IMG/VR virus record: IMGVR_UViG_2671180849_000019 | From: a virus | Lineage: Duplodnaviria; Heunggongvirae; Uroviricota; Caudoviricetes | Direction: 5' to 3' (one strand) | DNA: 34,380 nucleotides | Shown here: piece by piece, positions 2,228 to 29,298 of the stretch | How positions within the stretch are numbered: the stretch's first letter is position 1 | How the letters are laid out: the number at the start of each line of letters is the position of its first letter | Notes under the pieces: model-generated | The model's database searches: none | Seen by the model: the letters and a program-made list of their open reading frames with translations, nothing else | What the model was told of the DNA's origin: nothing | Position numbers and translations under genes: made by a program

Positions 2228-3400
2228 ATGGCTCAGGATTACCACCACGGGGTGCGCGTTGTTGAAGTCAACGAAGGCACCCGATCTATTACCACGGTGA
2301 GCACCGCCATCGTGGGTATGGTCTGCACGGGCGATGATGCCGATGCAAAAATGTTTCCTCTTAATAAACCCGTGCTGATCACTGATGTGCTGACTGCCAG
2401 CGGTAAAGCGGGTGAGTCAGGTACTCTGGCCCGTTCGCTGGATGCCATCGCTGACCAGGCAAAACCCGTGACCATTGTTGTGCGTGTGCCGCAGGGTGAA
2501 ACGGAAGACGAAACCACGACCAATATCATCGGCGCAGTGACTGCTGAAGGTAAAAAAACAGGTATGAAAGCCCTGTTATCTGCCCAGTCACAGCTCGGCG
2601 TTAAACCGCGCATTCTCGGCGTGCCAGGCCACGACACCAAGGCGGTAGCTACTGAGTTGCTGAGCGTGGCGCAACGCCTGCGTGGATTTGCTTACCTGTC
2701 AGCGTATGGCTGCAAGACAGTGCAGGAGGCGATCACTTACCGCGAAAACTTCAGCCAGCGCGAAGGGATGCTGATCTGGCCTGACTTTACTGGTTGGGAC
2801 ACGGTGCTGAATGCCGAAGCAACGGCATATGCCACCGCCCGTGCGCTTGGTCTGCGCGCCAAAATTGACGAGCAGACCGGATGGCACAAAAGCCTGTCCA
2901 ACGTGGGCGTGAACGGTGTCACCGGAATTTCTGCAGATGTGTTCTGGGATCTGCAGGACCCGGCAACCGATGCAGGTCTGCTGAACCAGAACGACGTCAC
3001 CACGCTTGTGCGTAAAGACGGTTTCCGCTTCTGGGGTTCCCGCTGCCTGAGTGATGACCCGCTCTTTGCCTTCGAAAACTACACCCGCACGGCGCAGGTG
3101 CTGATGGACACGATGGCAGAAGCACACATGTGGGCGGTGGATAAACCGCTTAACCCGTCGCTGGCCCGCGACATTATCGAAGGTATCCGCGCCAAAATGC
3201 GCAGCCTGGTCAGTCAGGGCTATCTCATTGGTGGTGATTGCTGGCTGGATGAGTCGGTGAACGACAAAGACACGCTGAAAGCCGGAAAACTCACCATCGA
3301 CTACGACTACACGCCAGTGCCGCCACTTGAAAACCTGATGCTGCGTCAGCGCATCACCGATCAGTACCTGGTGAATTTCGCCAGCCAGGTCAGCGCGTAA
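2228..3400 (+). CDS. FI: tail sheath protein (gpFI)
   Basis: 390-aa ORF; [19 protein letters not shown]...[12 protein letters not shown]... and C-terminal ...[22 protein letters not shown] match P2 FI as recalled. AGGAGG RBS upstream. Confidence 0.95.
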
Positions 3401-3409
3401 GGGGACAAC

Positions 3410-3925
3410 ATGGCATTACCACGCAAATTAAAACACCTGAACCTGTTTAACGACGGGAACAACTGGCAGGGGATCGTTGAGTCGCTGACGCTGCCGAAAT
3501 TTACCCGCAAATATGAGAAGTATCGCGGCGGCGGAATGCCGGGTGCGGTGGATGTGGATCTGGGGCTTGATGACAGTGCGCTGGACACAGAATTTTCCAT
3601 TGGTGGTACTGAATTGCTGCTGTTTAAACAGATGGGTAAAGCCACGGTGGATGGCATCCAGCTGCGCTTTACCGGCTCTATTCAGCGTGACGATACCGGG
3701 GAAGTGCAGGCCGTGGAGCTTGTCGTGCGTGGACGTCACAAAGAAGTGGATTCCGGCGAGTGGAAGACGGGCGAAAGCAACACCACCAAAGTGACCAGTA
3801 CCAACAGCTACGCGAAGCTGACCATCAATGGTGAGGTGCTCTATGAAGTGGACCTTATCAACATGGTGGAAATTGTGGACGGTGTGGACCTGATGGAAGC
3901 GCACCGCAACGCCCTCGGCCTCTGA
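3410..3925 (+). CDS. FII: tail tube protein (gpFII)
   Basis: 171-aa ORF immediately downstream of FI, P2 FII-like in size and position. Confidence 0.9.
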   Translation: MALPRKLKHLNLFNDGNNWQGIVESLTLPKFTRKYEKYRGGGMPGAVDVDLGLDDSALDTEFSIGGTELLLFKQMGKATVDGIQLRFTGSIQRDDTGEVQAVELVVRGRHKEVDSGEWKTGESNTTKVTSTNSYAKLTINGEVLYEVDLINMVEIVDGVDLMEAHRNALGL

Positions 3926-3979
3926 TATATCTGAACGGCGCGGGATACCGCGCCAGAACCCAATTGACAGGACAGCAAA

Positions 3980-4282
3980 ATGAGCGATAAGCAGACTGAA
4001 AAGACCATTCAACTGGATACCCCCATCAAGCGCGGTAAAACAGAAATCACCGAAATTGTGCTGCGTAAACCGCAGTCCGGTGCGCTGCGCGGTACACGCC
4101 TGCAGGCCATTATGGATATGGATGTAAACGCGATGATGACCGTGATCCCCCGCATCTCCAGTCCGGCACTGACTGCACAGGAAATTGCAGAGATGGACCC
4201 GGCAGATCTCACTGCCATGTCGGTTGAGGTTGTCACTTTTTTGTTGAAGAAGTCGGTGCTTGCCGGTTTACCGACAGCCTGA
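3980..4282 (+). CDS. E: tail assembly chaperone gpE (zero-frame product)
   Basis: 100-aa ORF between FII and T, containing the slippery heptamer TTTTTTG at 4237-4243 near its 3' end. Confidence 0.85.
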   Translation: MSDKQTEKTIQLDTPIKRGKTEITEIVLRKPQSGALRGTRLQAIMDMDVNAMMTVIPRISSPALTAQEIAEMDPADLTAMSVEVVTFLLKKSVLAGLPTA

Positions 4283-4416
4283 CGGTTGACGATCTGGTGG
4301 CAGATATCGCCACCATTTTTCACTGGCCGCCATCCGTTACTGACGTTATGCCGCTGACCGAAGTGCTGGAATGGCGGTATAAAGCGATTCAGAGAAGCGG
4401 GGCCAACGATGAGTGA
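3980..4416 (+). CDS. gpE+E' fusion predicted from programmed -1 ribosomal frameshift at TTTTTTG (4237-4243)
   Basis: The -1 frame is open for 58 codons from the slip site (FVEEVGACRFTDSLTVDDL...EWRYKAIQRSGANDE) and stops at TGA 4414-4416, overlapping the T start at 4409. Same layout as P2 E/E'. Confidence 0.6.
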
Positions 4417-7400
4417 TAACAACCTGCGTCTGCAGGTCATTCTTAATGCGGTTGACAAGCTCACCCGTCCATTTCGATCTGCGCAGGCCAGTTCAAGAGA
4501 ACTGGCTGCTGCTGTCAAAAAATCCCGCGATGCAATAAAGCAGCTTGATCAGGCCGGGAGCAGTCTGGACAGCTTCCGAAAGCTGCAGGCAGAAAATCAG
4601 AAATTAGGCGACAGGCTGAACTATGCCCGCCAGCGTGCAAATTTGCTCAGTCAGGAACTGGGAGCGATGGGGCCGCCTTCGCAACGTCAGGTTGTTGCTC
4701 TGGGCCGTCAACGGCTGGCTGTTCAGCGCCTGGAAGAACGCCAGAAAAAGCTGCAGCAGCAGACGGCGCTTGTGCGTGCTGAACTGTACCGGGCGGGAAT
4801 TTCTGCGAAAGACGATGCGGGAGCAACTGCCCGTTTAGCCCGTGAAACATCACGTTATAACCAGGAACTTTCGAAACAGGAGGCGCGGCTGAAGCGACTG
4901 GGGGAAGCTCAGCGCAGGATGAATGCAGCGCGTGCCAGTTATGCCCGTTCGCTGGAGGTGCGTGATCGTATTGCAGGTGCCGGAGCCACCACCACGGCTG
5001 CAGGGCTGGCAATGGGTGCGCCAGTGATGGCGGCAGTAAAAAGCTATACCAGCATGGAAGATGCCATGAAAGGTGTGGCAAAGCAGGTCAATGGTCTGCG
5101 TGACGATAATGGCAACCGCACTGCACGTTTTTATGAAATGCAGGATGCCATCAAGGCTGCCAGCGAACAGTTGCCGATGGAAAACGGTGCGGTGGACTTC
5201 GCTGCACTGGTTGAAGGTGGTGCGCGCATGAACGTCGCAAACCCTGACGACAGCTGGGAAGATCAGAAACGTGACCTGCTGGCCTTCGCCAGTACGGCAG
5301 CAAAGGCGGCAACAGCCTTTGAGCTGCCAGCGGATGAACTGTCAGAAAGTCTGGGGAAAATCGCCCAGCTCTACAAAATCCCCACCCGCAATATTGAACA
5401 GCTCGGTGATGCGCTGAACTATCTGGATGATAACGCCATGTCGAAAGGGGCAGACATCATTGATGTGATGCAACGTCTGGGCGGTGTGGCTGACCGTCTG
5501 GATTATCGTAAAGCGGCGGCGCTGGGTTCCACCTTCCTGACACTGGGCGCTGCGCCAGAGGTTGCAGCCAGTGCAGCAAACGCGATGGTGCGTGAATTGT
5601 CCATTGCCACCATGCAAAGCAAGAGTTTCTTTGAAGGGATGAATCTGCTGAAACTCAATCCTGAAGTGATTGAAAAGCAGATGACGAAGGATGCGATGGG
5701 AACCATCCAGCGCGTGCTGGAGAAGGTAAACGCGCTGCCGCAGGACAAGCGCCTGTCTGCCATGACTATGTTGTTTGGTAAAGAGTTTGGCGATGACGCG
5801 GCGAAACTGGCAAACAACCTGCCGGAACTGCAGCGTCAGTTAAAACTGACAGCGGGCAATGATGCGCTCGGCTCCATGCAGAAAGAATCCGACATTAACA
5901 AGGATTCACTTTCTGCGCAGTGATTGCTGGTCAAAACCGGAGCGCAGAACACCTTCAGCAGCCTGGGCGAAACGCTGCGCCAGCCGCTGATGGATATTCT
6001 GTACACGGTGAAAAGCGTCACGGGGGCGTTGCGTCGCTGGGTGGAAGCTAACCCGGAACTGACAGGCACACTGATGAAAGCATCGGCTGTTGTGGCTGCG
6101 GTTACCGTCGGCCTCGGCACCTTAGCGGTGGCGCTGGCTGCAGTGCTGGGGCCGCTGGCAGTGATCCGTCTGGGATTCTCTGTGTTGGGTATCAAAACGT
6201 TATCTTCCGTTACGGCAGCAGTAACTCGAACCAGCAGCGCGTTGTCCTGGCTGGCTGGCGCACCACTGGCACTGCTGCGACGCGGGCTTGCTTCATCGGG
6301 CAACGCCGCAGGTTTACTTACTGCGCCGTTGTCGTCTTTGCGCCGCACGGCATCACTGACGGGAAATGTCCTGAAAACTGTAGCAGGTGCGCCGGTTGCA
6401 CTTTTGCGGTCTGGATTATCCGGTTTACGTGCGGTTGCTGTGATGTTTATGAATCCACTGGCAGCACTACGCGGCGGGCTGGCTGCCGCAGGCACGGTGC
6501 TGCGAGTACTGGCATCTGGTCCACTGGCGATGTTGCGCGTTGCCCTGTATGCCGTATCTGGTCTGTTAGGTGCTCTGCTCAGTCCGATAGGTCTTGTGGT
6601 TACTGCACTGGCGGGTGTGGCACTGGTTGTCTGGAAATACTGGCAACCCATCACCGCATTTCTCGGTGGCGTGGTGGAAGGATTCAAAGCGGCGGCAGGT
6701 CCCATCAGTGCAGCGTTCGAACCGCTTAAGCCTGTGTTCCAGTGGATTGGTGACAAAGTGCAGGCGCTGTGGGGCTGGTTTACTGATCTGCTGACGCCCG
6801 TTAAGTCGACTTCTGCCGAACTGCAGAGCGCAGCGGCAATGGGGCGACGATTCGGGGAGGCACTGGCGGAAGGGCTGAATATGGTTATGCATCCGCTGGA
6901 CTCCCTGAAATCTGGCGTTTCCTGGTTGCTGGATAAACTCGGCATTGTCAGTAAAGAGGCTGCAAAGGCGAAACTGCCGGAAAGCGTGACGCGTCAGCAA
7001 CCTGCGACGGTGAATGCAGACGGTAAAGTGATGATGCCATCGGGTGGTTTTCCGTCATGGGGATATGGCTTTGCGGGGATGTATGACAGCGGCGGCTATA
7101 TCCCGCGCGGGCAGTTTGGCATCGTCGGTGAAAACGGGCCGGAAATTGTTAACGGCCCGGCAAATGTGACCAGCCGGAGAAATACAGCTGCACTGGCTGC
7201 CGTTGTTGCCGGAATGATGGGCGTTGCTGCCGCGCCTGCAGAGCTTCCACCGTTGCACCCTTTGGCACTTCCCGCGAAAGGCGGCGAAGCGATGGTGAGT
7301 CGTGCAGCCACTGTGCCGCCCGTTCAACGGATTGAGGCACCGATGCAGATCATCATTCAGACGCAGCCAGGACAAAGTGCGCAGGATATTGCGCGGGAGG

Positions 7401-18169: not shown

Positions 18170-19936
18170 ATGAACACCACACTGACACCCGCAGATCTCG
18201 ATCCCCGTCGGCAGGCCATGCTGCTGTACTTTCAGGGATACCGCGTAGCCCGCATTGCTGAAATGCTGGGCGAGAAAGTTGCAACCGTTCACAGCTGGAA
18301 AAAACGCGACAAGTGGGGTGACTATGGGCCGCTGGATCAGATGCAGCTCACCACCGCCGCACGCTACTGCCAGCTCATTATGAAGGAGCACAAAGAAGGG
18401 AAAGATTTCAAAGAAATTGACCTGCTGGCGCGCCAGTCGGAGCGCCACGCGCGCATCGGCAAGTTTAACAATGGCGGTAACGAAGCCGACTTAAACCCTA
18501 ACGTCGCCAACCGCAACAAAGGCCCGCGCCGTCAGCCGGAAAAGAACGTTTTCACCGATGAACAAATTGAGAAGCTGGAAGAAATCTTCCACTCCTCCAT
18601 GTTCAACTACCAGCGCCACTGGTGGGAAGCCGGAAAAACCAACCGCATCCGCAACCTGCTGAAGTCACGCCAGATCGGCGCGACCTTTTACTTTGCCCGT
18701 GAAGCCCTGATTGACGCCCTGCTGACCGGACGTAACCAGATTTTCCTTTCCGCCAGTAAGGCACAGGCCCACGTCTTTAAGCAGTACATCATCGACTTCG
18801 CCAAAGAAGTGGAGGTGGAGCTGAAAGGCGATCCGATGGTGCTTCCTAACGGGGCCACGCTTTACTTCCTCGGCACCAATGCCCGCACAGCCCAGAGTTA
18901 TCACGGTAACCTGTATCTGGATGAATATTTCTGGATACCGAAATTCCAGGAGCTGCGCAAAGTGGCTTCCGGTATGGCTATTCACAAAAAATGGCGACAA
19001 ACCTATTTTTCCACGCCATCCAGCCTGACCCACAGTGCTTATCCGTTCTGGTCCGGTGCGCTGTTCAACCGTGGACGCAACAAAGCCGACAAGGTGGACA
19101 TCGACCTGTCCCACAGCAATCTGGCCCCCGGCCTGCTGTGCGCAGACGGGCAGTACCGCCAGATAGTCACTGTGGAAGATGCGGTGCGCGGCGGCTGCAA
19201 CTTGTTCGACCTCGACCAGTTACGCATGGAATACAGCCCGGATGAATACCAGAACCTGCTGATGTGTGAGTTCGTGGACGATCTCGCGTCCGTGTTCCCG
19301 CTCAGCGAGCTGCAGGGGTGCATGGTGGACAGCTGGGAAGTCTGGACCGACTTTCATGCACTGGCGCTGCGCCCGTTTGGCTGGCGCGAAGTGTGGATCG
19401 GTTATGACCCGGCAAAAGGTACGCAAAACGGCGACAGCGCCGGGTGCGTGGTGGTGGCACCGCCAGCCGTGCCGGGCGGTAAGTTCCGCATTCTTGAGCG
19501 TCACCAGTGGCGCGGAATGGACTTCCGCGCCCAGGCTGACGCCATCAAAAAACTGACCGAGCAGTACAACGTGACCTATATCGGCATTGACTCGACAGGC
19601 GTCGGTCACGGGGTTTATGAGAACGTGAAAGCGTTCTTTCCTGCCGTCCGGGAGTTTGTCTACAACCCCAACGTTAAAAACGCTCTGGTACTCAAGGCCT
19701 ACGACATTATCAGCCACCGCCGTCTGGAGTTTGACGCCGGACACACCGACATAGCGCAGTCATTTATGGCAATCCGTCGCGCCACCACCGCCAGTGGCAA
19801 CCGCCCGACCTATGAAGCCAGCCGCAGCGAAGAAGCCAGCCACGCCGATCTGGCCTGGGCAACAATGCACGCACTGTTTAACGAACCACTGCAAGGCGAG
19901 TCCGCCAATACCAGTAATATTGTGGAGATTTTTTGA
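18170..19936 (+). CDS. P: terminase ATPase (large) subunit gpP
   Basis: 588-aa ORF, divergent from O and followed by Q, as in P2. Confidence 0.9.
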   Translation: MNTTLTPADLDPRRQAMLLYFQGYRVARIAEMLGEKVATVHSWKKRDKWGDYGPLDQMQLTTAARYCQLIMKEHKEGKDFKEIDLLARQSERHARIGKFNNGGNEADLNPNVANRNKGPRRQPEKNVFTDEQIEKLEEIFHSSMFNYQRHWWEAGKTNRIRNLLKSRQIGATFYFAREALIDALLTGRNQIFLSASKAQAHVFKQYIIDFAKEVEVELKGDPMVLPNGATLYFLGTNARTAQSYHGNLYLDEYFWIPKFQELRKVASGMAIHKKWRQTYFSTPSSLTHSAYPFWSGALFNRGRNKADKVDIDLSHSNLAPGLLCADGQYRQIVTVEDAVRGGCNLFDLDQLRMEYSPDEYQNLLMCEFVDDLASVFPLSELQGCMVDSWEVWTDFHALALRPFGWREVWIGYDPAKGTQNGDSAGCVVVAPPAVPGGKFRILERHQWRGMDFRAQADAIKKLTEQYNVTYIGIDSTGVGHGVYENVKAFFPAVREFVYNPNVKNALVLKAYDIISHRRLEFDAGHTDIAQSFMAIRRATTASGNRPTYEASRSEEASHADLAWATMHALFNEPLQGESANTSNIVEIF

Positions 19937-20973
19937 TGGGAAAGCGTAAGAAAAACCGCGCAGCGGCGATGAATCAGATCCAGCATAAAAGCCAGACTTC
20001 AGCCGAAGCATTCAGCTTCGGCGATCCCGTTCCTGTTCTGGACCGCCGCGAATTACTGGACTATGTGGAATGCGTACAGATGGACCGCTGGTATGAGCCA
20101 CCAGTGAGTTTCGACGGACTGGCGCGAACCTTCCGCGCCGCCGTGCATCATAGCTCACCGATTGCGGTGAAATGCAACATTCTGACCAGCACCTACATCC
20201 CTCACCCGCTGCTCAGCCAGCAGGCTTTTTCACGTTTTGTGCAGGACTATCTGGTATTTGGTAACGCCTACCTGGAGAAACGCACGAACCGGTTCGGTGA
20301 AATTATCGCCCTTGAGCCTGCGCTGGCAAAATACACCCGACGCGGGTTAGACCTGGATACCTACTGGTTTGTGCAATACGGTATGACAACCCAGCCGTAT
20401 CAGTTCACGAAAGGCAGCATCTTTCATCTGATGGAACCCGATATCAACCAGGAGATCTACGGCCTGCCCGGCTATCTTTCTGCCATTCCGTCAGCCCTGC
20501 TCAACGAGTCCGCCACGCTGTTCCGACGCAAATATTATATTAATGGCAGCCATGCAGGATTCATAATGTACATGACCGATGCCGCTCAGAACCAGGAGGA
20601 TGTGAACAACCTCCGCAACGCGATGAAAAGCGCCAAAGGTCCGGGCAACTTCCGCAACCTGTTTATGTACTCGCCTAACGGCAAAAAGGACGGGCTTCAG
20701 ATCATCCCGCTGTCAGAAGTGGCGGCAAAGGATGAGTTTCTGAACATCAAGAACGTAAGCCGGGACGACATGATGGCGGCGCATCGTGTGCCGCCGCAAA
20801 TGATGGGGATTATGCCGAATAATGTTGGGGGGTTTGGGGATGTGGAGAAGGCAAGCCGTGTATTCGTCCGAAATGAGCTAATGCCACTACAAAAGCGATT
20901 ACAGGAGATGAATGATTGGCTTGGCAAGGAGGCGATACAGTTTAATACCTACTCGCTAGATATAGTCCCATAA
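19933..20973 (+). CDS. Q: portal (capsid portal vertex) protein gpQ
   Basis: 346-aa ORF overlapping the P stop; size and position as P2 Q. Confidence 0.9.
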   Translation: MMGKRKKNRAAAMNQIQHKSQTSAEAFSFGDPVPVLDRRELLDYVECVQMDRWYEPPVSFDGLARTFRAAVHHSSPIAVKCNILTSTYIPHPLLSQQAFSRFVQDYLVFGNAYLEKRTNRFGEIIALEPALAKYTRRGLDLDTYWFVQYGMTTQPYQFTKGSIFHLMEPDINQEIYGLPGYLSAIPSALLNESATLFRRKYYINGSHAGFIMYMTDAAQNQEDVNNLRNAMKSAKGPGNFRNLFMYSPNGKKDGLQIIPLSEVAAKDEFLNIKNVSRDDMMAAHRVPPQMMGIMPNNVGGFGDVEKASRVFVRNELMPLQKRLQEMNDWLGKEAIQFNTYSLDIVP

Positions 20974-20976
20974 TAA

Positions 20977-21002
20977 GAAAAGCCACCGTTTGGTGGCTTT
21001 TC
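20977..21002. terminator. bidirectional intrinsic terminator hairpin between convergent Q and the HIRAN-domain gene
   Basis: GAAAAGCCACC-gttt-GGTGGCTTTTC: GC-rich stem flanked by A-run and T-run on either side. Confidence 0.6.
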
Positions 21003-21007
21003 TTCAT

Positions 21008-21748
21008 TTACTCAATAGGTTCAAACTCATCCTGAGGAATCAGCGTCGATTGACAGGCTTGGCTTAGTACTCCTGATAATTTACATAATAACCGATAGTT
21101 ATGAGGAGCATCATCGCTAATCTTTTCGACCGTTAAAGTGATTGATTTTGGATCATCCAATAACATCTTCTTGATATCATTACTTAAATACCTAGGGCAG
21201 TAACCAACGATTTCAGCTGGTTTATCTGCACGAACGACAACAGCATCCCCATCGTATTCATTTTGAAGATCCAAGCAAAGACGCAAAATTTGCCCCGGTT
21301 TCAATTCAGATACACGAGCATTAGCTAAGCTATTTAAGTAACCAAGTCCATGTAAGAAGAAAAAATGCTCAAAGTTACCATCAGAATCAACATCAATTTT
21401 TTTGAAAATCTGCAGCTGATCAGTGCTTCGTAAGCCTCCCGAGCGAGCAAGAATATCGATAGGATTTACCTTATCTTCTTCAAATCCAAGCCATTTAATG
21501 AAACTCGGATACTCTGGACGTCTCGGTGATAAAAGGCGATTTTTAAAAAGAGGAAACAATTCTTCCGAAACATAAGTTTCACGAACATCACTCATGCCGC
21601 TAAACTTTGTAAATTTAGTAGATTTGAGAGCACCTTTGGTATACCTGAAAACATACCCCGATTTGCGCTCTTGCAAGTTACCAACAACATGCCAGTCTCT
21701 GGTATCTGGTGCCTGCCATGCGACGTAAACGGAGTTTGTATTAGTCAT
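21008..21748 (-). CDS. hypothetical protein with C-terminal HIRAN-like domain (predicted DNA 3'-end binding); second gene of the kinase cassette
   Basis: 246-aa ORF whose ATG overlaps the kinase stop (ATGA). Segment LRLCLDLQNEYDGDAVVVRADKPAEIVGYCPRYL fits the HIRAN signature as recalled. Confidence 0.6.
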   Translation of the reverse strand: MTNTNSVYVAWQAPDTRDWHVVGNLQERKSGYVFRYTKGALKSTKFTKFSGMSDVRETYVSEELFPLFKNRLLSPRRPEYPSFIKWLGFEEDKVNPIDILARSGGLRSTDQLQIFKKIDVDSDGNFEHFFFLHGLGYLNSLANARVSELKPGQILRLCLDLQNEYDGDAVVVRADKPAEIVGYCPRYLSNDIKKMLLDDPKSITLTVEKISDDAPHNYRLLCKLSGVLSQACQSTLIPQDEFEPIE

Positions 21749-22659
21749 TCTAGTAACCTTCTGCGATTTTCCATTACCATTAACGTTGCAAATCTACGTG
21801 CACTGTCGGATATACACGATGAAGGCACTTGGTTAAACACATCTGTAATGGAATCTTCTGTTAAAACGCTCAACTTACCTAACCAATGGTCGCGAGCGGC
21901 AACTCTCCCTTCAACTGCATGTTGAAATGCTTCAACGGTCAGCAAGGGCTTTTTATCAGTTTTTGCTTTGAATAGCTCAGAGCGAGCTTTTCTTACAAAA
22001 CATGGGATTTGTCGATTTTTATCTTTAGTATTAAGCCGTTCGTTACGCTCATCATCTAACATCTCCCTTCCTAAACTAGCGGCATGATCGTATGTTGGAC
22101 ACAAAAACTGCTCACCAGTTTCATTGTTAAGCATGATCGCCCAATTTTCATGATGGCGATCTTGATTACTCACAAGTGCATCGAGCATCAAATATCCACA
22201 AAATACATCTGCTGCATTTAGCCCGGTTAGATCATATACACTCGGAGGAGGCTTGATAGATTCCCTATCTAAACAACCCAATACCCTTGTGACAGTGTGT
22301 TCTCTGACCCTTACCGGCTTTTCCCCGGCTTGTAAAGGCCCAGGATAATCGAATGTCGAACTGTGAAGCACTTCATTTCCCATTACCATCCGGAAACCAG
22401 ATGGAATGATATTCTGAGTCACCACACCGAATCGACCATTGTATCGCGCCAAATCATAGCTAGCATGTGGAATGTTAAGCAAATGACATAACTCAGCAGC
22501 ACACTTTTCAGACCAATGCTCGCCAGTACCTGGCCTAGAGTACTTAAACAACTGCAAATTTACAGTGTCATCGGAGAAATAGAACCAAAACTTCTCTTTG
22601 GTTCCTAACTGTTCAAGATCGTTAGCTACGGGGCTAAGCTCTACCAATTGGTATGGCAT
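21745..22659 (-). CDS. HipA-like Ser/Thr kinase (short, HipT-sized, lacking the HipA N-terminal subdomain)
   Basis: Catalytic-loop motif LVSNQDRHHENWAIM and downstream LCPTYDHAASLG match the HipA D-x-H-x-x-N and P-x-YD motifs; Gly/Lys-rich N-terminal segment QLGTKEKFWFYF. Confidence 0.7.
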   Translation of the reverse strand: MPYQLVELSPVANDLEQLGTKEKFWFYFSDDTVNLQLFKYSRPGTGEHWSEKCAAELCHLLNIPHASYDLARYNGRFGVVTQNIIPSGFRMVMGNEVLHSSTFDYPGPLQAGEKPVRVREHTVTRVLGCLDRESIKPPPSVYDLTGLNAADVFCGYLMLDALVSNQDRHHENWAIMLNNETGEQFLCPTYDHAASLGREMLDDERNERLNTKDKNRQIPCFVRKARSELFKAKTDKKPLLTVEAFQHAVEGRVAARDHWLGKLSVLTEDSITDVFNQVPSSCISDSARRFATLMVMENRRRLLE

Positions 22660-22818
22660 CTGACATCCCTGTTTAGCGGATTATGAATAAGTTAGGTTCC
22701 ATTTTATCCAAACATTGTCAAATACTCTAAGATTTATTAGATGATAGAGCGATACTGTATGCATGTCCAGCAATCAAATCAATATATAACTCTTATATGA
22801 CTTAGCGCGCGCTCGTAT

Positions 22819-22830
22819 CCCCGCCACGCC
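22819..22830 (-). other. possible cos-related sequence (GGCGTGGCGGGG on the minus strand)
   Basis: 12-nt exact match to the 5' part of the 186 cohesive end as I recall it (GGCGTGGCGGGGAAAGCAT); the remaining 7 nt do not match. Confidence 0.25.
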
Positions 22831-22852
22831 TGCCCGCTTTATGTAGTGGTTT

Positions 22853-22954
22853 TCATGCACCTGCATGACATAAGCAAAAGCACGCCAGTTCTGGCTGACT
22901 TCAGCAAAAACGATCCTCAAACGATCATGCGATCTCATGCGTCATAGTCATGCG
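22853..22954. promoter_or_regulatory. array of TCATGC(A/G) motifs (one 16-bp palindrome plus three direct repeats) overlapping a cluster of three GATC sites
   Basis: Palindrome TCATGCAccTGCATGA at 22853-22868; TCATGCG at 22925, 22935 and 22948; GATC at 22912, 22923 and 22931, all in the intergenic region between the two divergent cargo operons. Confidence 0.3.
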
Positions 22955-23254
22955 CTGCCAAGGGAAGCGTAAATCCGTATCTGAATGACTGCTGAAAAGC
23001 GAATCATACGGGTTTACAAAGATGAAAGTTCGCTGTGAGCGAGAAGCGAACCTTGCAACTTTGTTGGCACAGTTTTAACACCAATTTTTTGAGGATAGCT
23101 AGAAAACTTGTGGCATAAAGGATCAGTTTCCCGATCGAACTTTTTATCAAGAAGGGCTCATAGCAATCGCCAGAAGAAGTGATGTTAAAGTATTGAGCTC
23201 GGCGTTAAGATTAAATAAATTACAGACTAATCCAATGTTTTGTGGAAGGATAAG

Positions 23255-24298
23255 ATGGCAGTCAAGCGCGCATACTACGGTAACGATAGTGACCGAGACT
23301 ACTTAGAGCGGATATTTCAGTCAGCTAACATTAACTTTCTCATCGGATCAGGTGCATCCCTCCCAGCGATTAAAGTACTGGGGACAATCGAAACGGATCT
23401 TCAGCAGCTTATTAATGATGAACAGGAAGATGAATACTTAAGGATGGCAGCTGACTTTTTGTCAGATGTTTGGCTACCTCATGAATGCATGTTGAAGCGC
23501 GGCTACGGCACCCCCTTCGCACCTCAGGTGATCACCGATTTGGAATGTACCCGTGCAAATTATGATGCATTTATGTCTTCACTGGAAAAGATACTGACCC
23601 GCCGCCGAACTGGCCTACTTCCGAGGCGTATTAACGTTTTTACAACTAATTATGATTTATTCATCGAAGAAGCTGCCACACGTAATAACAATATTCTTTT
23701 TAATGATGGATTCAATAGAAGAGCAAGTATTTTGGGAGATGCGGAATTTGATGCGGGTAGCTTTAATCATTCTGTAAGTGCAACCGGAAATCTGTATAAT
23801 TATAAAGTTGAGCTTCCTACTGTTAACCTTATAAAACTTCATGGTTCGCTCTCTTGGCAGCATTCTAAAGGGAAAATCATTTATCGTATTGCAGATATTA
23901 AGCCGCTTGACTTTCCCACCCTAGCCGAAATGAAAGGATGGGTACTTGCTCATGCACTTATTCTTCCACGTAAGGAGAAGTTTAAAGAGACTCTACTACA
24001 GAACGTTTATTATGATTTACTGAGAACCTATTCCAACGAGCTTGATAAAGAAGCAACTTTACTAATTGTCTTTGGGTTCTCGTTTGCTGATGAGCACATT
24101 GAAACGATAACTAAAAAAGCCCTGCGCAACGCCACCCTGAAGCTACTGATCTTTGCTTTCGATGAGGCCAGTGTTAACGGCTTTATGGAGAAATTTCGGG
24201 ATTACTCAAACGTAGAGATTATTTATCGGCCGGGAAGAAATGTTGATTTTCCGGTAATGAATAACATTATCACGTGCTATCTGGGAGGCTCGAGATGA
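23255..24298 (+). CDS. SIR2-family NAD+-binding protein (defence-associated; SIR2 component of a SIR2-HerA pair)
   Basis: Motifs NFLIGSGASLP (Gly-rich NAD loop), VFTTNYDLFIE and LIKLHGSL (catalytic His). Start taken at ATG 23255 after GGAAGGA; the ORF track starts at TTG 23240. Confidence 0.85.
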   Translation: MAVKRAYYGNDSDRDYLERIFQSANINFLIGSGASLPAIKVLGTIETDLQQLINDEQEDEYLRMAADFLSDVWLPHECMLKRGYGTPFAPQVITDLECTRANYDAFMSSLEKILTRRRTGLLPRRINVFTTNYDLFIEEAATRNNNILFNDGFNRRASILGDAEFDAGSFNHSVSATGNLYNYKVELPTVNLIKLHGSLSWQHSKGKIIYRIADIKPLDFPTLAEMKGWVLAHALILPRKEKFKETLLQNVYYDLLRTYSNELDKEATLLIVFGFSFADEHIETITKKALRNATLKLLIFAFDEASVNGFMEKFRDYSNVEIIYRPGRNVDFPVMNNIITCYLGGSR

Positions 24299-26154
24299 GC
24301 AGGCATTTTACTGAAGAGGAAGCGGTGCTCCGTATAGGCGAAGTCTGTGAGGTTTCTGGACGCGCTGTGACAATTTTGGTCGATAAAAACAAAAATCTCA
24401 GTGACTTGTTTTATCAGGGAAAAGTTCTAAGAAATGTATCAGTGGGTAGCTTCATTGAGATCAAAAAAGGTTTCATGAGCCTGATCGGCAAGGTTGAAGC
24501 GGAACGAATCATTGAGGAAAAACATCTCGCTGGGAGCGGCAGTGATGCCTGGCGATATCGGCGATACCTGACCTCTACTCTTACGGGTTACATTGATCGT
24601 ACTGGTTGCTTCATTGGTGGTTCGCGTGAACTACCTCTCATCGGCAATGAAGTCTTCGTGGTAACTGAAGAGATGATACAAACGGTTCATCAGATAGCTA
24701 ATGCAGACGAAACTGTAATGAGGTTTACTCGTACAGATCTTGAAGATATTGAAATTGCACTACCAATCAATGGTCTTATTAATTCCCACATTGCCATTTT
24801 CGGTAATACAGGCAGCGGAAAGTCAAATACCCTAGCCGCGCTATACAAAGCAGGTATTGCCCAAGTTAAACATATTCTCGGCAACCACTTTAGTGAAAGA
24901 TGCAAATTTATTCTATTCGACTTTAATGGAGAATATACTGCCCCACGCTGTATTACTGACGAGAAGACGGTTTATAATCTCAACACGCACCATGCAAATG
25001 GTGACAAACTTCCTCTACCCAGAGAGGTTCTACTTGAGCATGATATGCTCTCAGTTCTAACCGATGCAACAGACAAAACACAGAAACCTTTCCTGAAGAG
25101 AGTTCTTGAGTTTCGCAAGAAAGTGATGACTGCTGATAATCCTCTTGAGTTTATGCGCAATATCCTGAAGAAAAAAGTCAGACAAAATCTCTTTAGTAGC
25201 GACAAACCCAAATGCGATACTATAAATCAGTTTCTTAGCCCAATTTTCAAAGATGACCCAGAACTTATATCTGATCTTGAGTATCATTCAACTGCATATA
25301 AATGGAAATTGAGGGGTGGTAGTATTTTCAATACAGAAGCTGATACTGAGCGCTCCTATCTATTCAGTCTTGCAAGCAATTTTTTATTTAAAACTGATAT
25401 GATTGAAGAACTGTTGGACTTTATGTACTTACAGTTAATACAGGAATATTTATCTAACAAGTCTAACCCTGAACATATTTCACCAGTTATAAATAGAATG
25501 AGTGCTAACCGTAAAGATATAGCCAAAATATTTGATACTTCCGGACAGTCTGACTTTTGGGGTGAACATAATTTCACGGTTGTGAATCTAAATATGGTTA
25601 ATATAACCATGAAAAAAACGCTTCCTCTTTTGATAGCCAAGTGGGCTTACAATATGAAGAAAATGTCTACAGAGAAATCTACACTGCACATCATTATAGA
25701 TGAAGCCCACAATATTTTGTCTAATACTTCTTTTCGGGAAACGGAAAGTTGGAGAGATTATCGTCTGGAAACTTTTGAGGAAATCATAAAGGAGGGGAGA
25801 AAATTTGGAGTTTTTATCACAATTTCCAGTCAACGCCCTAATGATATATCGTCGACAATCATATCCCAAGCACACAATTATTTTATTCATCGCCTTATTA
25901 ATCAGAATGATCTGTACGCAATTGAAAAATCAGTATCATATATAGATCGACTGACTGAAGAGTCGATTCCAACGCTATCTACAGGAACCTGTATTTTTAG
26001 TGGTATCGTCTGCCCCATGCCGCTCAAATTAAGGGTAGCTGAACTTCCAATTGAAGAAAAACCTAAGAGTAATACTATTTCCTTCAACGATTTAATACCT
26101 GAGAGGCTGGGAGAGGATGACCAGAGCGACTACGTAATAACCAGCCCTCACTAA
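24295..26154 (+). CDS. HerA/FtsK-like ATPase (HerA component of a SIR2-HerA defence pair)
   Basis: Walker A FGNTGSGKSNT and Walker B LHIIIDEAHNI; ATG overlaps the SIR2 stop (ATGA) with a GGGAGG RBS. Confidence 0.85.
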   Translation: MSRHFTEEEAVLRIGEVCEVSGRAVTILVDKNKNLSDLFYQGKVLRNVSVGSFIEIKKGFMSLIGKVEAERIIEEKHLAGSGSDAWRYRRYLTSTLTGYIDRTGCFIGGSRELPLIGNEVFVVTEEMIQTVHQIANADETVMRFTRTDLEDIEIALPINGLINSHIAIFGNTGSGKSNTLAALYKAGIAQVKHILGNHFSERCKFILFDFNGEYTAPRCITDEKTVYNLNTHHANGDKLPLPREVLLEHDMLSVLTDATDKTQKPFLKRVLEFRKKVMTADNPLEFMRNILKKKVRQNLFSSDKPKCDTINQFLSPIFKDDPELISDLEYHSTAYKWKLRGGSIFNTEADTERSYLFSLASNFLFKTDMIEELLDFMYLQLIQEYLSNKSNPEHISPVINRMSANRKDIAKIFDTSGQSDFWGEHNFTVVNLNMVNITMKKTLPLLIAKWAYNMKKMSTEKSTLHIIIDEAHNILSNTSFRETESWRDYRLETFEEIIKEGRKFGVFITISSQRPNDISSTIISQAHNYFIHRLINQNDLYAIEKSVSYIDRLTEESIPTLSTGTCIFSGIVCPMPLKLRVAELPIEEKPKSNTISFNDLIPERLGEDDQSDYVITSPH

Positions 26155-26167
26155 TTAACAAAGTGCT

Positions 26168-26187
26168 GAAGCGGTAACGACCGCTTC
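26168..26187. terminator. possible terminator hairpin between convergent HerA and DinI-like genes
   Basis: GAAGCGGT-aacg-ACCGCTTC perfect 8-bp stem, but without a clear U-tract. Confidence 0.3.
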
Positions 26188-26298
26188 TAGCACAAAGCGG
26201 ACGATCACTTATCAAAATGCCCGCCCACCTTACGCCTCGTTTCACTCGTTGCCCAAACTAGCCCCCATCAGAATGAATCCTCCTGGAGGCAACGTTTC

Positions 26299-26532
26299 TT
26301 AATGCAGCCAGCTGTCGTCTTCCCACACTTTCTGCATAATTTTCATCACTTGTTTTCTTTCTTCATCCAGTTGCAGTCCGGTCAGTTCCACACCGTTAGA
26401 GCTACCTTTGCGGATACGAATTACCGTTTTGGGATACAGGGGGCGCAGATTGCGGTAAAGCTCGGATTCAAGGGCGTCCAGGGTAGACTGGCTAATCTTC
26501 TGCTCTTTATCGATCATTATTTCAATGCGCAT
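26299..26532 (-). CDS. DinI-like protein (Tum/Orf97-like SOS module)
   Basis: MRIEIMIDKEQKISQSTLDALESELYRNL...WEDDSWLH resembles E. coli DinI as recalled. Own RBS GAGGTG. The ORF track starts 24 codons upstream. Confidence 0.75.
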   Translation of the reverse strand: MRIEIMIDKEQKISQSTLDALESELYRNLRPLYPKTVIRIRKGSSNGVELTGLQLDEERKQVMKIMQKVWEDDSWLH

Positions 26533-26542
26533 AAAAGTCACC

Positions 26543-26731
26543 TCAACTGATGACATCCATTGAGCGGTTGTATTCGTGGGTTCTGATTTTTGCCATGAGT
26601 TCATCAGTCAATTCAGAAACCCACTGCAGAGCCAGCCCCTTCTCTTCATCACTACACTCACTAGCCGCTACAAGCTTAAGAAAAAAATCAATGCGCTGGA
26701 GCTTCAAAGACTCCAAAAAATAGTCCTGCAT
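26543..26731 (-). CDS. small hypothetical protein, first gene of the LexA-boxed operon
   Basis: 62-aa ORF with AGGAGG RBS, 43 bp downstream of a consensus LexA box; its stop overlaps the RBS of the DinI-like gene. Confidence 0.5.
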   Translation of the reverse strand: MQDYFLESLKLQRIDFFLKLVAASECSDEEKGLALQWVSELTDELMAKIRTHEYNRSMDVIS

Positions 26732-26883: not shown

Positions 26884-29298
26884 TTAATACAGGTTCCGCC
26901 ACTTATCATCTTCCTGCAAACGCTGGTTCCGATAGAAGATACGCAGGCCTGCTCCTGACGGAATACTGCCGCCGCGAAGGAGTAAATCGACCTCTTTCTC
27001 GCTGCCATCAAATCCCCTGGACTTCAGTTCATACACGAGCTGCTGTCGCTGATGATCTGTAATTCGCTGTTTGTAGTCTTTACGCCGTTTCGGTTTCACC
27101 AGGCGTAACCTTGCTGCCAGTTCCCGGCGCTCTTTTTTGCTCATACTGTGCAGGTAATCGTGCAACTCCTTGTCATCCATACGGGTGATATCAGTTCTGG
27201 TATCTCCATCAGCTGATTTGTCTTTCCCTTGTTGGTACAAATTTTCAGCAAGGGGACAGTTATTGCCACGAGTCCAAGGGGCGCAAGCGCCCTGGTCGGC
27301 TGCCGCCTCCTGAACGTCAACGGCCTTACGAACCATTTTCCACTTCACTGCATGAGTGCAGATCTTGCCCTCTGCAATGGGTGACCAGATGCCATAAATA
27401 CGAATGCCGTGATCGCCATAGGCTGTCGGCTCTTCGTTGATTTCATAAGCGGTTCTGATCAAGTGATATTTGCGGGGAACCAACACGCCGCCCTGCTTCA
27501 TAATGTAGGTGGCAAAACAGCCAGCATCAGCAGCAGCCAGAATGGCATCAAGGCGCGGGTTATCCAGTACCGGAGCACCTGCTTTTTTGTCACCCTGTTG
27601 CCTTGCCGCCTGACCAGCCAGCAATCGCAGTTCACGGTAAGCCTGACGCCCCGGAATGCCAAAGAAGCGGAATTGCTGAACACGATGCAGAGACGCCCAG
27701 ACATTAACGTATTCAGCGTTATCACGCAGAGATTTACCCGTTTCCTTGCTGATCTCGCCAGCCAGACCACGCCCGTCAATGTTCTTACTGATATATTTCG
27801 CGATGTAGCTTGTCGGCGTTCCTTTGCGCGGGTTAATCAACTCAGACTTAAAGCGCGGCCCAGTGTTATTGCCCAGCTCCTCGCGGTCTTCACGGATGGC
27901 AAACTTACGCAGTAATGCAGTGATGGCGCGGCGGTCTTTTTTGCGCATAAAACACAACAGGTGCCAGTGAACTGTACCGTCATGATGCGGCTCAGCCACC
28001 CGCACGCCATACCAGCGCAATCCGGCTTTGTGCATCGCCTTACGAAATGCAGCAAACATGCCGACCAGATAGTCGCTGCTTTGTCTTACCGTCGAGTTTG
28101 TCCAGGTCGGGTTGGGTCTGCCGTTATTGAGCGTGGAATGGAAACGCGACGGACAGGTGATAGTGTAGAAAACGGCGCAGTCACTGCGCATTTCCGCGAT
28201 AAGCTCCAGACCTTTAACACAGGCCATCATCTCATTGCGGCGATGCGCCGGGTTGCTGCTGCTGGCGTTTACCACATCTTCCATATCCAGCGTGTCGCCG
28301 TCTTCGTTCACCAGTTCATGAGAACGGAAAAACTCCAGCGACTTACGGCGCTGCTCACGTTTATGCATCACGGCTTCATAGCTGACATAGGGGGATGCTT
28401 TTTTGCTGACCAGGCAGACAGCACGCAACTGCTCTTCCCGCCATTCACAACGCATCTTCCATAATTTCCGATACCACCAGTCGGCACACAACATACGCGC
28501 CAACGAACCCGGAATGAGTTCATAGGGCACGGGTTTACGGCGGTTTCTTTTCCGACGGAGTTGCTCAAACGCAGGTGGGATGACATCCAGACGCAGGGTT
28601 TCCGCTGCCACCTTTTCCCATGTCTTGCGGATTTCTTCTGGCTTAACGTCATCGGTGGCATACAAATCACCACAAGCTGCATCAAGGCACATACTCATAT
28701 GCGCAGCTACCAGGGTGGACAGGCGTTTCACCTGATCCTGACTCATTTCAGGCAGGATCAGCAGGCCGTCCAGCCCTTCATGGCTTGCCATAAAGCGAAA
28801 AGATGCAGATAGCTGACTGTCGCGTACATGCTCCAGTCGTTCCAGACATGGCTTAATCGTCTCACGTAAATAGCGGGAATAAGCCTTTGGCTTGCCCAGG
28901 CTGCTGAAGTATTCAATACGTTGCATCAGCGGCTTGCTGATATGGGAAGGCTGGGCGTTGACGTCCGCCAGAATGACCATGTCTGAATTAAAACGCTGCT
29001 GCTCATGCGCCAGCTTTGCCCGGCTAATGAGCTTATCCTGCTCCATTTCGCGCTGGACAGGATCACGTGATTCATTAAAGAAATAACGCTCCCAGACCTG
29101 ATCACTCAGTGCCTCGCGGCGCAACTGTTCCTGCTCGTTATCGGCAGCGTACAGAGTGATCAGGTTTGAAAGCGTAGAAACCGGCGCAACTTCCGCCGGG
29201 TCCAGATAAGGGTTAATGGCCTTTTTCGGGCTGTTCCATGAGAATGCTGCAGCAGCCTCGTTAAAGCCGCAGCAGTTGTTCATATCGGCATGACTCAT
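26884..29298 (-). CDS. A: replication initiation protein gpA (rolling-circle endonuclease)
   Basis: 804-aa ORF in the P2/186 A position, upstream of the tum-like module. Confidence 0.85.

Follow-up and report, generated by a model that had tools for sequence, protein, structure and literature searches.

A probable SIR2-HerA abortive-infection gene pair carried as cargo beside a cos-like site in a P2/186-like prophage of Escherichia coli

In a 34,380-nucleotide stretch of viral DNA (IMG/VR record IMGVR_UViG_2671180849_000019, hereafter the window) a P2/186-like E. coli prophage carries among its cargo two overlapping genes, which very probably act together as a SIR2-HerA defence system of the abortive-infection type. 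From characterised homologues of the two proteins we infer that they assemble into a complex, that the SIR2 is an NADase, and that a trigger sets off a defence response. Other SIR2-HerA subtypes are known to deplete NAD+, and by homology the divergent subtype of the window would do the same. The pair consists of the following features:

23255..24298, plus strand: predicted SIR2-family NADase effector gene (ORF 1), ATG start, 347 aa
24295..26154, plus strand: predicted HerA-type hexameric ATPase gene (ORF 2), 619 aa
24295..24298, plus strand: ATGA stop/start overlap of SIR2 and HerA, read directly from the sequence

Both reading frames and the ATGA overlap had been described in an earlier note on this DNA, and they are present where that note had placed them. 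A GGGAGG Shine-Dalgarno sequence is located close 5' of the ATGA, and the overlap is predicted to couple translation of SIR2 and HerA. Of 7 related loci with 70-96% protein identity, 6 retain an ATGA or GTGA at the junction. Where other E. coli genomes have an identical locus, RefSeq annotates both CDS with the start codons given here. Regarding selection, dN/dS values of 0.09-0.30 (~0.1) for both genes indicate that the pair is under purifying selection, and judged from its sequence the two-gene pair is intact in the window. The pair had further been described as AT-rich, which holds: the G+C content is 0.418 for the SIR2 gene, 0.391 for the HerA gene and 0.409 for the interval 20974-26298 as a whole, that is 41% compared with 53% (0.529) for the remaining window.

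RefSeq WP_028985770 ('SIR2 family protein') and the SIR2 protein of the window are 100% identical; a literature search for this accession returned no paper. The motifs of the SIR2 are GSGAS at residue 31 (the Gly-rich NAD loop), TTNYD at 130 and HGS at 196. PADLOC profile PDLC04080 matches from position 1 to 347 of 347 (E 6e-211), and Pfam SIR2_2 scores 48.4 bits with a cut-off of 24.5. N132 of the TTNYD motif and H196 of the HGS motif are invariant among 62 homologues and align with the catalytic residues N226 and H287 of SaSir2 from Staphylococcus aureus, for which a point mutation of H287 abolished NAD+ hydrolysis, while N226 was proposed from conservation (PMC11514289). An AF2 model of the SIR2 monomer (pLDDT 85, pTM 0.87) was compared with the PDB by Foldseek. 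Each of the best 39 matches is the SIR2 subunit of a solved SIR2-HerA complex (E 1e-17 to 1e-10); the next match, KomBC, follows after an E-value gap of at least three orders of magnitude, and DSR2 and the yeast deacetylase Hst2 appear at E 7e-06 or worse, below every SIR2 subunit of a SIR2-HerA complex.

The HerA protein, which differs from WP_086482717 by one residue, contains the Walker A motif GNTGSGKS at 170 (K176), an FDxNGEY motif (D209), the Walker B motif IIDEAH at 467 (D469/E470) and a conserved EGRKFG...SQRP segment. D209 is located 33 residues past the Walker A lysine; Ile occupies position 188 and Arg position 218. PADLOC profile PDLC04097 matches over profile positions 3-616 of 618 (E 6.5e-267), and the Pfam HerA central domain DUF87 scores 70.2 bits with a cut-off of 23.2. 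Walker A, Walker B and SQRP align with those of three solved SIR2-associated HerA proteins (8wiv, 8yho, 8j4u_M), as does the N-terminal barrel region; residues 9-260 align to residues 9-247 of PsHerA. All five motifs cited in the earlier note (GSGAS, TTNYD, HGS, GNTGSGKS and IIDEAH) were thus found in the two translations. Its assignment of the pair to SIR2-HerA is likewise upheld, with the PADLOC SIR2 and HerA profiles matched over their full length and Pfam SIR2_2 and DUF87 above their curated cut-offs. The system is named 'SIR2-HerA' in PADLOC and presumably corresponds to Gao_Her_SIR in DefenseFinder.

In comparison with known systems, SaSir2-HerA of Staphylococcus aureus (PDB 8yhx/8yho) gave the best PDB match for the SIR2 both by sequence (E 3.5e-21) and by structure (E 2.6e-17); its HerA can be aligned with that of the window over the ATPase core (E 4.6e-26), and both systems share the two-gene architecture of SIR2 and HerA and the aligned Asn/His dyad. 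The staphylococcal proteins form a 12:6 complex in which the NADase is activated allosterically by HerA, and an additional loop and a helix bundle of SaSir2 are described as essential for complex formation (PMC11514289). The host of SaSir2 is however Gram-positive, the identity is only ~19-21% (structural alignment), and the catalytic Asn of the window SIR2 comes ~94 residues earlier (N132 vs N226), so that the insertion separating TTNYD from the Gly-rich loop is much smaller. The solved SIR2 proteins measure 381-428 aa (PDB), so that the window SIR2 is 34-81 residues shorter; because of this shortness and an identity of only 16-21% to them (structural alignment), its contacts with HerA may differ from those in the solved complexes. 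Nezha, the SIR2-HerA of Gao et al. 2020 (PDB 8j4u, 8su9, 8sub), shares with the window pair its species, its two-gene architecture and the folds of both proteins (TM 0.61-0.67); it is also found in P2 and P4 hotspots, as system #14 of Table S5B (Rousset et al. 2022, PMC9122126). Its SIR2 is nevertheless 415 aa long compared with 347 aa, with 18-21% identity, and its Walker A lysine and FD aspartate are 24 residues apart compared with 33. Since both window proteins score below the NCBIfam equivalog cut-offs (99.8 bits vs 500 for NF042942 SIR2_antiphage, 137.5 vs 800 for NF042943 HerA_antiphage), the pair is classed by these profiles as a relative of the Nezha/Gao-2020 equivalog subfamily, not a member.

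The best PDB match for HerA, barrel region included, was PsSIR2-HerA of Paenibacillus sp. 453MF (PDB 8w9l, 8wiv, 8wld; E 3.3e-28), in which complex formation activates NADase, nuclease, ATPase and helicase activities (PMC11472057). PsHerA differs in its length of 696 aa with a unique C-terminal extension, and the SIR2 identity is 16-18%. The HerA is homologous (E 7.6e-26 and 2.4e-21) to the partner in DUF4297-HerA of Gao et al. 2020. In E. coli itself, mining for adjacent sir2 and herA genes gave eight divergent clusters, which include types I-III (Zhang et al. 2026, PMC13434337). In the assay of that study only four of the eight conferred protection from phages, and for several divergent subtypes abortive infection was shown to be the mode of protection. 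The window pair is expected to belong to one of these clusters. By residue numbering only, it is not type III, which has K188 and D218 with a spacing of 30 between the Walker A lysine and FD (PMC13434337), compared with K176, I188, R218 and a spacing of 33 in the window. Among the PDB matches of the window HerA, we take 8xau and possibly 9c1m (labelled only 'ATP-binding protein' in the search) to be DUF4297-HerA, the effector of which would be a DUF4297 nuclease and not a SIR2 NADase.

The pair is located between the portal gene gpQ, which ends at 20973, and the replication protein gene gpA (26884-29298, minus strand), and shares this part of the prophage with a cos-like site and a second, divergently oriented cassette:

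21008-21748, minus strand: HipS-like/HIRAN protein (Pfam HIRAN 51.3 bits)
21745-22659, minus strand: HipA-like small kinase (PADLOC PDC-M03 profile), neighbouring candidate system
22818..22830, minus strand: cos-like core GGCGTGGCGGGGA, sole match in the window
22957..26288, no strand assigned: cargo insert with SIR2-HerA, on the gpA side of cos; missing in P2-like prophages that have the kinase cassette only and are otherwise identical

We presume that this core resembles the cohesive ends of P2 and 186. Searched with all 19 nt of the P2 cos, the window had no site with ≤3 mismatches; only the 13-nt core GGCGWGGCGGGGA was matched. A recombination breakpoint with locus L001 falls at 22806, and from the 13-nt core together with the recombination breakpoints the site at 22818-22830 is a probable cos. 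It lies between the kinase cassette and SIR2-HerA, and the cargo on either side is exchanged independently. The insert is delimited by a prophage with the kinase cassette and the cos region but without the pair (L017), which matches the window at 22599-22956 and resumes at 26289. The P2-like prophage context and the variable cargo locus supposed in the earlier note are both correct for the interval between gpQ and gpA, the cargo of which differs among otherwise identical prophages. The gpA-gpQ interval is a published P2 hotspot, WP_028985770 is found in its loci (Table S5A), and both 'SIR2 + HerA' and the HipA/HIRAN cassette are recurrent hotspot systems (Rousset et al. 2022, PMC9122126). The SIR2 protein at the P2 hotspot is already catalogued, and the finding is in this sense ordinary. 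The old/tin locus of P2 occupies the same position in the phage genome, with variable anti-phage cargo beside cos, which in P2 consists of old and tin.

The kinase cassette (21008-22659) is indeed divergent from the pair, on the minus strand with a 595-bp spacer in between. It matches PADLOC PDC-M03A (E 2e-122) and PDC-M03B (E 3e-93), whereas Pfam HipA_C is below its cut-off, and the arrangement of its genes fits the definition of hipIN-like in PMC8262856. It is nearly identical to system #20 of Table S5B, for which 150 occurrences are given (Rousset et al. 2022, PMC9122126). We found no published experimental validation of the cassette as a defence system, and on its PDC-M03 matches and hipIN-like architecture it is a candidate only. 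Of the 'two-system defence island' that had been proposed for this interval, the SIR2-HerA half is supported; the second half would be the kinase cassette, a candidate system, and the term is overstated.

The pair is mobile as a 3.2-kb module with its own leader and terminal hairpin. Its borders were obtained by comparison with L002, a chromosomal non-P2 copy in a non-phage island beside a restriction endonuclease, with which the window shares the stretch 23024-26194 at 90.9% identity:

23024..23254, plus strand: upstream non-coding leader, which travels with the pair (L002 comparison)
26163..26193, plus strand: stable hairpin at the right-hand edge of the common module, 9 nt past the stop codon of HerA

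An inverted repeat (23025-23054) marks the left edge of the leader, which presumably holds the promoter of the pair. A scan for the sigma-70 consensus gave no convincing plus strand promoter upstream of SIR2, and the number of matches in the promoter/terminator scan equalled the shuffle expectation. The hairpin has a folding energy of -21.2 kcal/mol and a z-score of -5.9, with none of 200 shuffles folding as well; it has no T-tract and is probably a transcript end or an insulator. The right module boundary follows at 26194 (L002 comparison). Modules of this kind are also present in non-phage islands of many species, and in all 14 related loci from other species (30-96% identity, reaching Lactobacillus and Bifidobacterium) HerA is found directly 3' of the SIR2 homologue. 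Within E. coli the pair is rare, being present in only 18 of 5426 complete genomes; copies with at least 99% identity were found in 13 E. coli genomes. In the phage collection a DNA search gave no match to the pair, and a protein search gave only distant matches (23-31% identity) and no isolated phage with the pair.

By analogy with the solved complexes, HerA would form a hexameric ring ATPase, the N-terminal barrel of which docks on a two-layer SIR2 ring in a complex of the SIR2(12-14):HerA(6) kind, and in the uninfected cell the SIR2 NADase would be held off. Infection by a competing phage would supply the trigger and switch the complex on; the only system with known triggers responds to phage proteins such as SSB, to exposed DNA ends and to a fall in ATP. 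The SIR2 would then hydrolyse NAD+ by means of Asn132 and His196, and the infected lysogen would stop growing before the invader replicates, so that sibling lysogens, and hence the prophage, would be protected. The short-SIR2 lineage may furthermore represent an E. coli cluster for which no activity or trigger has been demonstrated, with its own SIR2-HerA docking and its own trigger, an idea which we regard as quite improbable. Competing P2-like phages or P4 satellites might supply such a trigger through their proteins or through cos-type DNA ends, a possibility suggested because the pair lies beside cos and opposite a kinase cassette with HIRAN (DNA-end-binding). If this were true, the system would be a mechanistically distinct variant and not a copy of Nezha.

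Within the same family a different killing logic is conceivable, in which HerA acts as a nickase that makes DNA ends, ATP serves as a checkpoint and NAD+ depletion is late and gated. Type III works in this way: the nickase mutation D218A abolishes its defence, and the NADase is gated by the ATP that HerA binds (PMC13434337). The window HerA retains the FDxNGEY aspartate D209, and from the similar spacing to the Walker A lysine one might guess that it is the counterpart of D218. We nevertheless consider this reading unlikely, as the residue numbering given above does not fit type III, the subtypes are not interchangeable (HerA swaps between them abolish defence; PMC13434337), and other systems display helicase and nuclease activities, or no ATPase at all. 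Far less probable is a role that is not primarily anti-phage, either as a selfish addiction or stabilisation module or in the processing of prophage DNA (packaging, or end processing beside cos). The pair does adjoin cos, terminases are distant relatives of the HerA/FtsK-type ATPases, and the HerA has a weak PHROG terminase match (E 2e-16), but the prophage has its own terminase and portal, most P2-like prophages are without the pair, L017 among them, and the same module occurs in non-phage islands. HerA was rejected as packaging ATPase of the prophage on the first two of these grounds.

That the pair is a decaying, non-functional remnant would fit the apparent frameshift in the SIR2 homologue of Pantoea ananatis (L012) and the lack of a recognised promoter upstream of SIR2; with both ORFs full length relative to the profiles, all catalytic motifs intact, low dN/dS and highly similar copies in other E. 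coli genomes, we judge this to be highly improbable. The chance is close to nil that we are dealing with a ThsA-like SIR2 or a deacetylase sirtuin beside an unrelated ATPase, for which no support was found; Pfam reports just the generic SIR2_2 domain. Placement in unrelated families had been named beforehand as the outcome that would speak against a SIR2-HerA pair, and it was the SIR2 and HerA profiles that matched. In Thoeris, ThsA is a fusion of SIR2 and a SLOG sensor domain and has the TIR protein ThsB as partner. Pfam found no SLOG or other second domain in the 347-aa SIR2, no Thoeris profile was among the matches listed (25 of 27 PADLOC matches), and the partner is HerA; the ThsA-like candidate was accordingly rejected. 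The deacetylase sirtuin was rejected as well, with no deacetylase family as best match for the SIR2, a fold nearest to SIR2-HerA subunits in the Foldseek ranking and an ATPase that matches the HerA profile over its full length.

Taken as a SIR2-HerA defence system, the locus defines the exact module boundaries (23024-26194) and the key residues N132 and H196 of SIR2 and K176, D209 and D469/E470 of HerA. Beyond correct annotation the finding matters little, and the independent exchange on each side of cos is one modest added detail. The module moves between prophage hotspots and chromosomal islands, and the locus cleanly illustrates a published rule, by which the defence cargo that P2-like prophages bear beside cos is interchangeable.

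The earlier note had placed a SIR2 gene and an ATPase gene overlapping by ATGA at 23255-26154, in AT-rich DNA divergent from a kinase cassette, and this observation was confirmed. The ORFs share ATGA at 24295-24298, with a GGGAGG ribosome-binding site ahead of the HerA start, and all five quoted motifs were found: GSGAS, TTNYD and HGS at residues 31, 130 and 196 of SIR2, and GNTGSGKS and IIDEAH at residues 170 and 467 of HerA. From the portal gene to the DinI-like gene the GC content is 40.9%, compared with 52.9% in the remaining window, and the kinase cassette lies on the opposite strand and is thus divergent from the pair. Where other E. coli genomes carry an identical locus, RefSeq calls the same two CDS, as 'SIR2 family protein' and 'ATP-binding protein'. 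The features of the region are as follows.

Features of the cargo region and its neighbours
18170-19936: terminase large subunit (PHROG profile)
19933-20973: portal (PHROG profile)
21008-22659, minus strand: kinase cassette
22818-22830, minus strand: cos-like core GGCGTGGCGGGGA, in the 595-bp spacer between kinase cassette and SIR2
23025-23054: left-edge inverted repeat, 10 nt
23255-24298, plus strand: SIR2 ORF, ATG start, 347 aa
24295-26154, plus strand: HerA ORF, 619 aa
26163-26193: terminal hairpin, 13-bp stem just past the HerA stop, no T-tract (-21.2 kcal/mol, z -5.9)
26299-26604, minus strand: DinI-like protein (PHROG 189), between cargo and gpA
26884-29298, minus strand: replication/nicking protein gpA (PHROG profile)

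Profile searches, which might have placed the proteins in unrelated families, matched all 347 positions of the PADLOC-DB SIR2 profile PDLC04080 (E 6e-211) and positions 3-616 of 618 of the HerA profile PDLC04097 (E 6.5e-267), so that the SIR2-HerA identity stands; about twenty more SIR2 profiles and fourteen more HerA profiles matched more weakly. Pfam SIR2_2 and DUF87 (the HerA central domain) each exceeded the curated cut-off. The NCBIfam equivalogs 'SIR2_antiphage' (99.8, cut-off 500) and 'HerA_antiphage' (137.5, cut-off 800) were matched but fell far short, so the pair is a member of the SIR2-HerA family outside the subfamily of Nezha, the E. coli system of Gao et al. Among PDB sequences SIR2 was closest to SaSir2 of S. 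aureus (8yhx, E 3.5e-21), followed by Nezha SIR2 (8j4u, 1.5e-11) and PsSIR2 of Paenibacillus (8w9l, 8.5e-05), and HerA matched PsHerA (8wiv, 3.3e-28), SaHerA (8yho, 4.6e-26), Nezha HerA (8j4u_M, 2.4e-20) and two more HerA-type ATPases, 9c1m and 8xau. N132 and H196 of the window SIR2, both invariant across a 62-homologue alignment, align to N226 and H287 of SaSir2, the proposed catalytic dyad, in which a point mutant of H287 abolished NAD+ hydrolysis (PMC11514289). The Walker A, FDxxGEY, Walker B and EGRKFG...SQRP segments of HerA align in every solved HerA shown. An AlphaFold2 model of SIR2 from the 62-sequence alignment (mean pLDDT 85, pTM 0.87) was compared with the PDB by Foldseek, and each of its best 39 matches is a SIR2 subunit from one of the three solved SIR2-HerA systems (E 2.6e-17 to 1.3e-10, TM 0.52-0.67, 16-21% identity). 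KomBC (E 5e-07) came after these, then DSR2, the yeast deacetylase Hst2 and FAM118B; this ranking, together with the HerA matches, rules out a ThsA-like or deacetylase-like SIR2 with an unrelated ATPase.

When one genome per species was scanned, 14 loci with SIR2 relatives (30-96% identity) were found, in Citrobacter, Enterobacter, Pantoea, Klebsiella, Buttiauxella, Gilliamella, Lactobacillus, Bifidobacterium and a Muribaculaceae MAG. All 14 carry a HerA homologue directly 3' of the SIR2 relative on the same strand, and an ATGA or GTGA junction is retained in 6 of the 7 loci checked. Most informative comparisons gave dN/dS of 0.09-0.15 for SIR2 and HerA alike; for SIR2 the least diverged pair gave 0.30. 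SIR2 and HerA form a functional unit that is conserved and under selection. The SIR2 subfamily comprises 1920 protein clusters at E <= 1e-10, mostly near 347 aa, those named being all 'SIR2 family protein' or 'hypothetical'. HerA is better conserved than its SIR2 partner in 13 of 15 locus comparisons, including every one from Enterobacterales (for Pantoea septica 86% vs 71% against the window), which suggests faster evolution of the SIR2 effector than of the ATPase. In Pantoea ananatis LMG 2665 (658-1702 of that locus) the SIR2 match is split in two, with overlapping segments at query residues 1-217 and 203-347, which suggests a SIR2 frameshifted or disrupted by duplication upstream of an intact HerA.

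The neighbours identified by PHROG, including a Dam-type methylase, a CI-type repressor and an integrase, bear out a P2/186-like prophage, as had been supposed. Given its position, the CI-type repressor encoded here and the annotation of CII/Fil-type regulators in the related prophage of E. coli EC812A1, the DinI-like protein may be the Tum-like SOS antirepressor of a 186-type phage. The gpQ-gpA interval beside cos is the hotspot of Rousset et al. 2022, where P2 itself carries old and tin (PMC9122126). Their Table S5A lists WP_028985770, 100% identical to the window SIR2, in P2 hotspot loci 'SIR2_2 + DUF87 + DinI', and in Table S5B system 14 is 'SIR2 | DUF87 - SIR2 + HerA (Gao et al., 2020)' (188 occurrences) and system 20 'HipA_C | HipA_C/HIRAN' (150 occurrences) (PMC9122126). 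The window kinase cassette is nearly identical to the representative sequences of system 20.

The full pair was found in 18 of 5426 complete E. coli genomes, in 13 of them with at least 99% identity, and all three inspected among these close copies lie in P2-like prophages. Neither DNA nor protein searches found the pair in any isolated phage of the phage collection. Only three of the 5426 genomes have the exact combination of both cassettes; ten others resemble the window only rightwards of ~22806 and carry different portal-side cargo, and prophages with the kinase cassette alone have 68 bp in place of 22957-26288. The cargo thus differs between compared prophages on either side, in agreement with the variable locus that had been proposed. 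The sole cos-like core in the window is 12 nt away from the 22806 breakpoint; the two cassettes flank this probable cos and would occupy opposite ends of the linear virion DNA. Prophages with other portal-side cargo match the window from the breakpoint on, so the cargo on either side of cos is exchanged independently. A 54-aa ORF (22774-22938, minus strand) overlaps the cos-like site; RefSeq annotates it as a 'hypothetical protein' in EC812A1 but leaves it out in other genomes, and it is unlikely to be a real gene. In EC812A1 (3221-6157 of that locus) a portal gene without its N-terminus abuts the tail tape measure gene, so most head and tail genes have been deleted, and the locus is a degraded prophage retaining its SIR2-HerA defence cargo.

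A 91%-identity copy of 23024-26194 lies in a non-phage chromosomal island, near a restriction endonuclease and a TPR protein. This shared extent and the replaced segment 22957-26288 delimit a mobile unit of ~3.2 kb, consisting of a 231-bp leader, SIR2, HerA and the terminal hairpin. Both edges, as shared with the island copy, coincide with hairpins, which may be insulators, terminators or recombination landmarks. The island copy (E. coli 873.10, NZ_CP061754.1, 6927-11025 of that locus) is outside any P2 prophage; ankyrin and DUF6387 proteins, IS elements and a type I R-M remnant are also nearby, and the surroundings look like a classic defence island.

The earlier note had called the interval a two-system defence island, which holds for SIR2-HerA as a known-family system but not for the kinase cassette, which PADLOC lists as a 'phage defence candidate' (PDC-M03); the interval is therefore better described as a known-family system next to a candidate one. 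The architecture of the cassette is that of hipIN, a small HipI-like/HipA-like kinase followed by a HipS-like/HIRAN putative antitoxin, for which an abortive-infection role is predicted only (PMC8262856), and experimental proof of defence by it was not found in the literature. A literature search for WP_028985770 found no experiment on the short-SIR2 subtype; of the eight E. coli clusters from which Zhang et al. tested representatives, four gave robust protection, namely Nezha and types I-III (PMC13434337).

By homology with characterised SIR2-HerA systems, a HerA hexamer would bind SIR2 subunits arranged in a double ring, with the NADase silent before infection and, once activated, depleting NAD+ and aborting infection; ring architecture and NAD+-depleting abortive infection are both described for those systems (PMC11514289, PMC11472057). 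In the most detailed model, E. coli type III, phage SSB and Gp5.9 are the triggers, the HerA nickase makes DNA ends whose stimulation of the ATPase uses up ATP, and ATP binding to HerA is the NADase checkpoint (PMC13434337). Subtypes differ in their activities (PMC11514289) and are not interchangeable (PMC13434337). The window HerA has K176 where type III has K188, with Ile and Arg at residues 188 and 218, and by this residue numbering only it is excluded as the type III protein. The solved SIR2s exceed that of the window by 34-81 residues, SaSir2 having about 94 more residues ahead of the catalytic Asn, and the docking surface of the window SIR2 may therefore differ from that of the solved systems. 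The literature and PADLOC already contain the family, the hotspot and the same protein at the same hotspot, and nothing here is new to them; profiles, fold, synteny and hotspot together support the anti-phage reading of the pair, as a SIR2-HerA family defence system in a P2-like prophage.
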